Position numbers and translations under genes: made by a program. 64,000 bases of DNA, from NCBI RefSeq assembly GCF_003334785.1, contig NZ_QOWV01000013.1. One strand, written 5' to 3'. The number at the start of each line of letters is the position of its first letter. Position 1 is the stretch's first letter. The DNA is from Escherichia coli. Its GTDB lineage: Bacteria; Pseudomonadota; Gammaproteobacteria; Enterobacterales; Enterobacteriaceae. Shown here in pieces: positions 54,100 through 55,112 of the stretch. Below the pieces are notes generated by a model that worked only from the letters and a program-made list of their open reading frames with translations, was not told the origin of the DNA and ran no database searches.

Positions 54100-54318
54100 T
54101 TACCATTCCTCGCGCAGCTTACGCTGATATTCGACACCATCTTCCTCACACCCTTGCCAGATGCCAGGAACACTGGTTCTTGCTGTTTGCGATTGATTTA
54201 TCAGGTATTGATCTACCGCTTCCCTTAATAGGTCCGCACGAGGAAGATTACGCTGCACCTCGAGATCATCAAGTTGCTTAATCACCTCATTCGATAAATC
54301 GAGTAAAATTCTGCCCAT
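54100..54318 (-). CDS. yiiF: YiiF, small predicted ribbon-helix-helix DNA-binding protein (72 aa; start choice between Met1 and Met9 of track ORF uncertain)
   Basis: Track ORF 54100..54342 (80 aa); [42 protein letters not shown]... Confidence 0.75.
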
Positions 54319-54433
54319 ATCTATACCTGCCAGAGAGTTCATAAATATCTCGCCAATATCATTTTTGAATCTATGGAGAGAAAAGTACCCTTGCCGAATC
54401 TTTAAAGAAAGCTCATTTACGCATCATTTTTTA

Positions 54434-54480
54434 TTTTTGCGAGGCGTTTTCCAGATATGATGTAACAGTTGCAGTTATTA
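54434..54480 (-). promoter_or_regulatory. conserved upstream element of yiiF (copy 1 of a duplicated motif)
   Basis: tttttgcgaggcgttttccagatatgatgtaacagttgcagttatt, about 115-160 bp upstream of yiiF; near-identical copy upstream of yiiE. Confidence 0.45.
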
Positions 54481-54559
54481 TAAGTTCAAGTAAAACAGCC
54501 TTGTATTAATACCAGAATAAGGGCATCTGTTTTTTATATTCAAGAATGAAAAATTTTTG

Positions 54560-54778
54560 TCATTCCTTATGCTCCTTACACTGATCATCAACACCAACTA
54601 CCTCCCCCTTTTGCCTGCCTCCCTTTGCTTTACGCACCGGGAATTGCTGACGTTCCAGATATTGCTCTACCGCTTCGCGTAAAATTGCAGATCGTGAAAC
54701 CTTACGCCAGCCCCGAAGCTTGTTCAGCCGTTTAATTGCCTCTTCTGATAAATGAAGAAAAACCGTATTCATCGCCAT
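54560..54778 (-). CDS. yiiE: YiiE, small predicted ribbon-helix-helix DNA-binding protein, paralog of YiiF (72 aa)
   Basis: Track ORF 54560..54805 (81 aa); MAMNTVFLHLSEEAIKRLNKLRGWRKVSRSAILREAVEQYLERQ...; shares the LREAV(D/E)QYL motif with YiiF. Confidence 0.75.
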   Translation of the reverse strand: MAMNTVFLHLSEEAIKRLNKLRGWRKVSRSAILREAVEQYLERQQFPVRKAKGGRQKGEVVGVDDQCKEHKE

Positions 54779-54871
54779 TACCAATACCTTACATATATTA
54801 CTCATTAATGTATGTGCGAAAATTACGCCGGAAAATCATTTAAAAAAAGCGGATTTTTGCATGTTGTTTTG

Positions 54872-54925
54872 TTTTTGCGAGGCGTTTTCCAGAAATAATA
54901 AGAGTGTTGCAGTTGTTTCATTTAT
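54872..54925 (-). promoter_or_regulatory. conserved upstream element of yiiE (copy 2 of a duplicated motif)
   Basis: tttttgcgaggcgttttccagaaataataagagtgttgcagttgttt, about 95-150 bp upstream of yiiE. Confidence 0.45.
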
Positions 54926-55112
54926 TACTCAAAAATGGTTTAGTTATCGCCCAGGATGAATTATGGGTGCTATGAATATATTATATTCAGAGATATTTAT
55001 TTGCATAATCTGAATGGTGTAGCCGAAAAACGTCAGCATCCTAACAGCACCAGGATTTAAGGTGAAATTAATCTTTCATCACAGACCGGTCAGTACTGCC
55101 ACCAACCGGTCT

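Follow-up and report, generated by a model that had tools for sequence, protein, structure and literature searches.

yiiE and yiiF of Escherichia coli K-12 as the probable remains of a chromosomal VapBC toxin-antitoxin module

Two tandem genes and the ends of a lost toxin gene

The genes yiiF and yiiE lie in tandem on the minus strand of a 64,000-nucleotide stretch of the Escherichia coli chromosome (assembly GCF_003334785.1, contig NZ_QOWV01000013.1), which is referred to below as the window and which is of the K-12 type, with 100% identity to K-12-like strains. The gene order at the site is fdoI-fdhE / yiiF / yiiE / fabY. In an identical strain, the Prokaryotic Genome Annotation Pipeline (PGAP) gives fdoH-fdoI-fdhE (+), yiiF (-), yiiE (-), a truncated "hypothetical protein" pseudogene and fabY (-). 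The original prediction, made from the sequence of the window, described two 72-codon genes about 240 bp apart, and the two open reading frames (ORFs) are indeed separated by 241 nt (Table 1).

An alignment of YiiE with YiiF over 56 residues has 41% identity (E=3e-12), and both proteins contain the motif LREAV(E/D)QYL, as had been noticed before. The predicted ribbon-helix-helix (RHH) fold was borne out for both proteins. YiiF is the protein of PDB entry 2K5J, a deposition with two chains, and Pfam RHH_1 matches YiiE at 1.6e-11 and YiiF at 0.007. The AlphaFold2 model of the YiiE monomer has an extended N terminus followed by helices 12-24 and 29-44, the pattern that had been expected, and a disordered tail at residues 50-72 (predicted local distance difference test score, 65). 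Structure searches with this monomer model returned no matches, which we attribute to the modelling of a short obligate-dimer fold as a monomer. A profile of the YiiE/YiiF family finds the solved RHH proteins 7ETR, 6XRW and 6IYA and, weakly, CopG (1B01/2CPG) and NikR. NCBIfam gave weak RHH-type matches and nothing else, and the PADLOC defence models had no match at yiiE/yiiF. These assignments correct a review table in which YiiF is called an AraC-family regulator (PMC4797297). UniRef lists one YiiF variant under the name "Thymol sensitivity protein".

YiiF matches chain A of PDB entry 7BY2, deposited as "CopG family transcriptional regulator", with E=1.7e-27. This chain is the VapB protein of Klebsiella pneumoniae, which is 68% identical to YiiF, and VapB of K. 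pneumoniae ATCC 13883 agrees with the aligned part of the chain at every residue. The C-terminal 21-residue tail of YiiF aligns to the tail of this VapB, which was solved in complex with VapC. The tail of YiiE is different: where VapB has W, Y, L and W, it has R, D and E and, at the last position, a stop codon, and it does not have the character of a toxin-binding tail. YiiE homologs are confined to Escherichia and Shigella.

The toxin partner is present at the same site in other genomes. Between fabY and fdhE of Citrobacter freundii, an 80-residue YiiF ortholog overlaps a 124-residue PIN-domain gene by one base, and Citrobacter sp. NCU1 and E. albertii show the same arrangement. For the PIN protein of Citrobacter, the match is 7BY2_B, "Ribonuclease VapC" (E=5e-65), which identifies 7BY2 as the K. 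pneumoniae VapB-VapC complex; the structures 7BY2 and 7BY3 are those of Kang et al. (2020, J Med Chem), as cited in PMC11117207. An ortholog scan with one genome per species yielded 37 loci, 33 of them not of the Escherichia type, and tblastn placed VapC directly downstream in almost all of these 33, full-length or nearly so in most. The taxa with VapC downstream include Citrobacter, Klebsiella, Salmonella diarizonae, Kluyvera, Trabulsiella, Cedecea, Kosakonia, Lelliottia and Franconibacter. Full-length vapC was found in 57 of 5426 complete E. coli genomes and some vapC match in 1761 of them, and E. coli 2016C-3878 has the order yiiE - vapB - vapC - fdhE.

In the window, no intact PIN toxin gene was found beside yiiF. 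What is left of vapC is one fragment of 13 nt and one of 56 nt, on either side of two repetitive extragenic palindromic (REP) units that resemble a bacterial interspersed mosaic element (BIME). One part of a 2-kb query has about 38 occurrences in each E. coli genome, and Rfam gave sub-threshold matches to REP-derived naRNA4 and ES036 at the REP units downstream of yiiF. The vapC end fragments flanking the REP units indicate that yiiF is an orphan vapB, and the window holds a remnant of vapBC, not a working system. The original prediction had seen no toxin-like partner next to the two genes. This stands for an intact toxin gene, but the two ends of vapC had been overlooked, and the intact gene occurs in other genera and in the 57 E. 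coli genomes. Likewise, the functions of the two genes had been called unestablished, which remains true of experiments in K-12, whereas homology (2K5J, 7BY2) places YiiF as VapB.

Table 1. Coordinates of the features at the yiiE/yiiF locus, in window positions.
Feature	Coordinates	Strand	Remarks
vapC 3' remnant, 56 nt	53807..53862	-	Matches nt 305-375 of vapC from E. coli 2016C-3878 except for a 15-nt deletion; encodes ..LEVVTRNTRD/GVVTPYEL*
Two REP-type palindromic units (BIME-like) replacing the vapC interior	53952..54049 (units 53952-53980, 54016-54049)	.	Basis: sequence, recurrence, Rfam
vapC 5' remnant, 13 nt	54088..54100	-	ATGGGAAAAAATG; yiiF stop codon overlapped by ATGGGAAAAA.., as at intact vapBC loci
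yiiF	54100..54318	-	Orphan vapB antitoxin gene; 72 codons + stop; N-terminal RHH domain and intact VapC-binding-type tail
Block 2, decayed vapB core promoter and putative operator	54340..54361	-	Reads TGATATTGGCGAGATATTTATG here vs TGATATACTGGAGGTATATATG
Box B1, yiiF copy	54434..54455	-	TCTGGAAAACGCCTCGCAAAAA; conserved across Enterobacteriaceae
AACTGCAAC, yiiF copy	54468..54476	-	12 nt upstream of B1
yiiE	54560..54778	-	Escherichia-specific tandem vapB paralog; 72 codons + stop; RHH conserved, C-terminal tail degenerate and predicted disordered
Candidate yiiE-type operator	54791..54815	-	Inverted repeat ACATACA-N11-TATATGT, ~13 nt upstream of yiiE ATG
Box B1, yiiE copy	54872..54893	-	22-mer TCTGGAAAACGCCTCGCAAAAA, identical to yiiF copy
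AACTGCAAC, yiiE copy	54906..54914	-	12 nt upstream of B1
Right-end remnant of variable island	54895..55271	-	Other strains: 103-aa ORF, nadS and small ORFs in the island
Truncated ORF within island remnant	55113-55271	-	Partial pseudogene per PGAP

Duplication, promoter decay and selection

The upstream regions of the two genes contain a direct repeat of 100 nt with 73% identity and a start-to-start spacing of 438 nt. The similarity is not limited to this repeat. The units 54557-54965 and 54097-54545 can be aligned over their full length with 58% identity and a peak of 90% over the conserved box B1, and the stop codon TGA of yiiE is aligned with the final TGG (Trp72) of yiiF. The alignment of entire units of about 450 bp suggests an old tandem duplication, so that the proposal of a duplicated gene plus upstream region withstood proper alignment. 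The contiguous yiiE-yiiF tandem is present in 4140 of the 5426 E. coli genomes. Natural chimeras, in which a YiiE-type N-terminal half is joined to a YiiF-type C-terminal half at the LREAV motif, occur in single-gene E. coli loci, indicating that the paralogs recombine. The vapB gene of E. albertii is also a YiiE/YiiF chimera, with vapC following it and with a C-terminal half one residue off the vapC-positive E. coli allele. An ancestral order yiiE-vapB-vapC in Escherichia, followed by recombination between the paralogs, fits these observations. In E. coli AVS0935 (L003, 3283-4896), a DUF6708 gene and a 246-aa gene stand in opposite orientation between a yiiE-type and a yiiF-type gene.

Phylogenetic footprinting of 27 upstream regions revealed two conserved islands in drifting DNA (majority fraction of 0.59 in the flanks), namely B1 (0.89) and a second island closer to the gene, Block 2 (0.91, 23 taxa). 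Block 2 has the consensus TGATATACTGGAGGTATATATG in vapC-positive E. coli and in other genera. For KPN_04185, the "yiiF" of K. pneumoniae MGH78578, a transcription start site has been mapped 4 nt before the annotated ATG (Kim et al. 2012, supplement, PMC3415461). This site falls 7 nt after TATACT, suggesting that Block 2 is the core promoter, with an extended -10 element (TGnTATACT), and that the mRNA is nearly leaderless. In the part of that supplement covered here there was neither a yiiE entry nor an E. coli yiiF entry, an absence that is not proof. The start codon of yiiF itself is ambiguous (54100-54342): the K-12 annotation gives 72 residues, PGAP starts at 54342 and gives 80, and structure constructs and PGAP models have 80-82. 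Given that transcription in K. pneumoniae begins 4 nt ahead of the upstream ATG, translation of the long form would be leaderless, or initiation would occur internally at MGRILL.

Block 2 of the orthologs also contains the inverted repeat ATATAC-N5-GTATAT, which overlaps the mapped start site and has half-site centres 11 bp apart. We infer that this repeat is the autoregulatory operator of VapB or VapBC, a geometry of 11 bp being suited to two RHH dimers. K-12 and two other vapC-less strains carry the mutated form TGATATTGGCGAGATATTTATG, in which the -10 T and the palindrome are lost, whereas Block 2 of the vapC-positive E. coli strain is unaltered. The proximal repeat of the yiiE type is different, ACATA(C/T)A-N11-TATATGT, and its arms are perfect in E. 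albertii (ACATATA/TATATGT). The proteins differ in the residues that probably touch DNA: if alternate residues of the beta-strand make the contacts, as the analogy to other RHH proteins suggests, these are three aligned positions with R/L/D in YiiF and T/F/H in YiiE.

Selection on the two genes was estimated as the ratio of nonsynonymous to synonymous substitution rates (dN/dS) with the Nei-Gojobori method. The ratio was 0.03-0.06 between genera for vapB genes that have vapC, 0.24-0.28 when E. coli alleles without vapC were compared with the E. coli allele that has it, and 0.21, 1.12 and 1.39 among vapC-less alleles. The replacements in vapC-less alleles are D7N and G2S in the beta-strand and Q64L, E71K and C57S in the tail. 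Although the counts are small, these values are consistent with a relaxation of constraint on yiiF after the loss of the toxin. Over the 43 N-terminal codons of yiiE, there are 0 nonsynonymous and 1-5 synonymous differences (E. coli, E. whittamii), and against E. albertii 1 nonsynonymous and 5 synonymous differences were counted over 37 codons. The dN/dS of the yiiE tail is 0.2-0.6. Published work on the two genes contributes little: yiiF<>kan strains are viable and have served as neutral markers (PMC9551528), which speaks for the dispensability of yiiF, a yiiF deletion was among the hits of a silver-resistance screen (PMC6071238), and YiiE is among the SlyA targets from genomic systematic evolution of ligands by exponential enrichment (SELEX) (PMC6134199).

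Taken together, the locus is in all likelihood a decaying chromosomal type II toxin-antitoxin module, VapBC, accompanied by an older tandem copy of its antitoxin gene. The ancestral state, as comparison shows, has vapB and vapC between fabY and fdhE, with an overlap of one base and with vapC encoding a PIN-domain RNase. VapB combines an RHH DNA-binding domain with a C-terminal tail covering the toxin, and vapB is transcribed from the extended -10 promoter TGATATACT overlapping the palindrome. In Escherichia, the upstream region and vapB would then have been duplicated in tandem to give yiiE-vapB-vapC, an order that survives in a few E. coli strains, and each unit would have carried along its copy of B1, which lies distally, at about -106 relative to the start site of vapB. 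YiiE kept the RHH domain under strong purifying selection and lost the hydrophobic toxin-binding residues, and it has T/F/H in place of R/L/D at the presumed contact positions together with a different proximal repeat. With the RHH domain retained, the toxin-binding tail lost, and contact residues and proximal repeat changed, YiiE would most likely be a stand-alone RHH autorepressor derived from an antitoxin. In the K-12 lineage, REP elements replaced the interior of vapC, the vapB core promoter and its palindrome underwent mutation, and yiiF came under relaxed constraint, which would leave YiiF as an orphan antitoxin with no toxin to neutralise. B1 aside, the yiiE/yiiF locus is a case of ordinary genome decay.

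Several observations weigh against this account. Most E. coli genomes retain a complete yiiF ORF with a well-conserved tail, so that a residual function such as cross-neutralisation is possible. The dN/dS values come from 72 codons and a handful of alleles. The synonymous divergence between yiiE and yiiF is saturated (dS of 1.4-2.6), as against a difference of only about 27% in the upstream DNA, implying that constraint, gene conversion or a mosaic origin was involved and may be hidden behind the term "simple duplication". The assignments of operators are putative, based on palindromes and their position. Finally, B1 is perfect in vapC-less strains even though the rest of the yiiF unit decays, which decay alone does not explain.

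Two other explanations of the locus have to be considered. The original prediction regarded YiiE and YiiF as active free-standing RHH transcription factors, with a duplicated element of about 45 nt as promoter and operator. The strong purifying selection on the RHH domain of yiiE, the contiguity of both ORFs in the 4140 genomes and the rank of the box as the best-conserved part of both units would agree with such a role, as would the regulation of yiiE, which is induced 2.5-fold by SlyA overexpression and lies within H-NS-bound DNA (PMC5797941). However, in K. pneumoniae about 106 bp separate the box from the start site and the palindrome downstream, the two units have identical boxes despite the different putative contact residues, the box also precedes an unrelated operon that includes nadS, and no sigma-70-like promoter was found at the box. 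Selection on yiiF is relaxed and its core promoter is mutated. We consider this explanation quite unlikely as a whole. The second explanation holds that yiiF is kept as an "anti-addiction" orphan antitoxin against incoming vapC and is thus functional, not decaying. Most E. coli genomes have an undamaged ORF, VapC-binding-type tail included, and the cognate vapC still circulates in some strains. The mutated core promoter and palindrome argue against it, together with dN/dS near or above 1 between some vapC-less alleles and the changes in both beta-strand and tail, and we regard it as improbable.

The conserved upstream box B1

The original prediction had drawn attention to a near-identical motif at a similar distance from each gene. 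The two copies of B1 agree exactly over 22 nt and at 27 of 29 positions with the flanks; about 1e-7 exact 22-mer repeats, and 5e-9 of 24-mers, are expected by chance in a 1.75-kb stretch. The distance from the GG of B1 to the start is 134 nt for yiiF and 118 nt for yiiE, measured there to the third codon, which is aligned with the ATG of yiiF. Across taxa, the consensus is (T)CTGGAAAGCGGCTCGCAAAAG, which can be written as TCTGGAAA-N4-CTCGCAAAA. The GG is 133-135 nt from the MGRILL start codon in 19 of the 21 non-Escherichia taxa that have the box, placing B1 about 100-106 bp upstream of the vapB start site mapped in K. pneumoniae with a fixed spacing across about 20 taxa. Among the aligned copies, the accompanying element AACTGCAAC is confined to the Escherichia units examined, where it is either unaltered or, as in the AACTGTAAC of E. 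albertii, changed at one position.

B1 is not restricted to vapB and yiiE. An additional copy was seen beside a divergent alpha/beta-hydrolase gene, upstream of an unrelated operon of a 103-aa ORF and a NadS-family helix-turn-helix protein, in E. coli 673 and MLI108K3, E. albertii, Pseudocitrobacter and K. spallanzanii. B1 thus heads three unrelated small modules, the nadS module, yiiE and vapBC, at the fabY-fdhE hot spot. The copies within one genome share lineage variants, AACGCC in E. coli, GCAGAA in Pseudocitrobacter and ATGG in Klebsiella. Near-perfect copies number two per E. coli genome in the median, and K-12 has exactly two, both at yiiE/yiiF. This copy number speaks against a plasmid-borne or genome-wide motif; the two plasmid matches inspected are chromosomal fragments filed as plasmids, and several others are chromosome-sized records. 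None of the papers covered prints the motif.

Isolated matches were observed elsewhere. In the dinG-ybiA spacer (L051, 2501-2520), 20 nt agree with the B1 consensus without a mismatch (TTCTGGAAAGCGGCTCGCAA). They lie 25 nt ahead of the start annotated for ybiA, and the LexA box of dinG is about 48 nt away. Of 5426 E. coli genomes, 5422 have this 20/20 match, which may be due to chance, given its database-level E of about 0.1 and 15 of 22 matching positions at the homologous site in Klebsiella. The closest named homologs of YbiA outside Escherichia and Shigella are from planctomycetes, with about 70% identity. In viral contigs, five occurrences of the full 20-mer CTGGAAAGCGCCTCGCAAAA were counted, distributed over three contexts, against an expectation that we estimate at about 0.16. 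This 20-mer or a variant with one or two changes is located in viral or a few enterobacterial prophage-like contigs (L057/L073/L101; L058, 4364; L132, 10737; L127/L050), the contexts being the 3' end of a 113-aa ORF read as SymE/AbrB-like, an intergenic region, and an apparent prophage end beside a tRNA gene.

B1 is probably neither a core promoter nor an operator, contrary to what had been proposed for the motif. The start site known from K. pneumoniae lies too far downstream, the motif also precedes the nadS module, and the difference between YiiE and YiiF at all three presumed DNA-contact residues suggests that an identical box is probably not their own operator. A sigma-70 scan found no promoter-like site upstream of either gene, and by inspection there was no conserved -35/-10 pair on either strand. 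A small ORF, reading GK(R)LAK in one frame of all copies, was also rejected, with the start codon absent in most taxa and spacing differences of 1 nt. The entropy by codon position is 1.27/1.34/1.30, without three-base periodicity. Rfam had no match at B1 for a known RNA family.

Our best guess, offered tentatively, is that B1 is an upstream regulatory site for a host factor. It is possible, if doubtful, that B1 is a previously undescribed cis-element, either the site of a regulator shared by toxin-antitoxin cassettes or a site of cassette exchange. The main alternative to a distal regulatory site is a role at cassette junctions, with B1 as a boundary at which small toxin-antitoxin-like cassettes (the nadS module, yiiE and vapBC) recombine or integrate in the hot spot. 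One to several tandem copies of B1 are present at the locus, each heading a different module, the copies within a genome share lineage-specific variants, and the content of the island between fabY and yiiE varies by strain. In E. whittamii (L048, ~3322), yiiF and most of vapC are apparently deleted, and the junction, as judged from matched sequence, appears to lie inside B1 (TATCTGGAAAACGCCTCGC / GCAATACGAG), which is joined to the apparent 3' end of vapC. Against such a boundary, the cassettes contain no integrase or recombinase, weak similarity between copies continues for about 65 nt past B1, and unequal crossing-over with gene conversion would explain the pattern equally well. The distance from B1 to the vapB promoter is fixed even in genera with a single copy, indicating a regulatory rather than a recombinational constraint. 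A boundary role of this kind is therefore unlikely in our judgement.

Very improbable is a sigma-54 (-24/-12) promoter, suggested by TGG-N9-CGCA with an invariant GG and GC 10 nt apart and by the variation among taxa of the four bases between the conserved halves: B1 scores 3.7 bits, below both the minimum (7.9) and the median (16) in training (matrix from 50 intergenic sites of chromatin immunoprecipitation sequencing, ChIP-seq), 333 other 17-mers of the window score equally or better with a matrix that recovers the known fdoI site, the A after GG is found in 0 of 50 training sites, B1 does not reach the level of known sites against the consensus TGGCAC-N5-TTGCW, and no yiiE/yiiF site is among the 135 ChIP-seq sites or in the supplements (PMC4591121). 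Strong sigma-54 matches lie elsewhere in the window, at 52362-52378 (+), 867-883 (-) and 1987-2003 (-). CTGGCGCGAATTCTGCA (inside fdoI) and TTGGCGCGAATATTGCC are the intragenic ChIP-seq sites IS47 (fdoI) and IS48 (metF) of Bonocora 2015, and the third match, CTGGCACAGTTGTTGTA, scores 15.4 bits.

The surrounding hot spot and related systems

The AT-rich spacer between fabY and yiiE contains a sole minus-strand sigma-70-like promoter match, TTTAAA-16-TATTAT (55329-55356, -), just upstream of the truncated ORF. A weak SELEX peak of the RpoS holoenzyme has been reported in the yiiD-yiiE spacer (PMC5493296); by approximate coordinate conversion it is at about 55520, in the same spacer. The nadS module of other strains (L008, 2203-2944; L004, 4183-4924; L021; L036) has a perfect palindrome of its own, GTACGTCAATGACGTAC, near its start, in addition to B1 at its head. 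Its 103-aa ORF has no family match, and judging from its organisation the two-gene module looks like another cassette of the toxin-antitoxin type at the hot spot. In C. freundii (L006, 3812-3827) and the same region of other genera, a LexA-box-like sequence, CTGTATGGATATACAG, precedes the start codon of the divergent alpha/beta-hydrolase gene by 18 nt and adjoins a TATAAA that resembles a -10 element. This hydrolase, which lies between fabY and vapB and is absent from K-12, may be SOS-regulated. For the K-12 locus, control by LexA was rejected, as no LexA-like box was found in 53900-55650 of the window.

The nearest system for comparison is VapBC of K. pneumoniae, an ortholog at the same fabY-fdhE site with an RHH domain and tail, and with B1 and the extended -10/palindrome upstream. 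Unlike the window, which has two vapC fragments and a mutated core promoter, K. pneumoniae retains the PIN toxin VapC and is without yiiE. Orphan, or solitary, antitoxin genes can remain after toxin loss in type II toxin-antitoxin systems, and yiiF resembles them in surviving as an ORF beside toxin remnants under relaxed selection. What differs is the second, older antitoxin-derived paralog upstream, yiiE, with its strongly constrained DNA-binding half. In FitAB of Neisseria gonorrhoeae, a PIN toxin is paired with an RHH antitoxin whose C-terminal region binds the toxin, and the complex binds an inverted repeat at its own promoter. The ancestral vapBC would share this combination of RHH antitoxin and PIN toxin, but a sequence relationship to the yiiF system is undetectable beyond the fold. 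CopG, Arc and omega-type proteins are stand-alone RHH repressors. YiiE resembles such a minimal repressor in having a strand, two helices and a disordered tail, and differs from them in its derivation from an antitoxin gene.

The practical value of these findings is modest. Two long-standing "y-genes" of K-12 can be assigned to a known system, yiiF as an orphan VapB antitoxin gene and yiiE as the gene of an antitoxin-derived RHH protein under selection. The fabY-fdhE site thereby offers a natural decay series of one toxin-antitoxin module, from intact vapBC through yiiE-vapB-vapC and the orphan pair to recombinant single genes.

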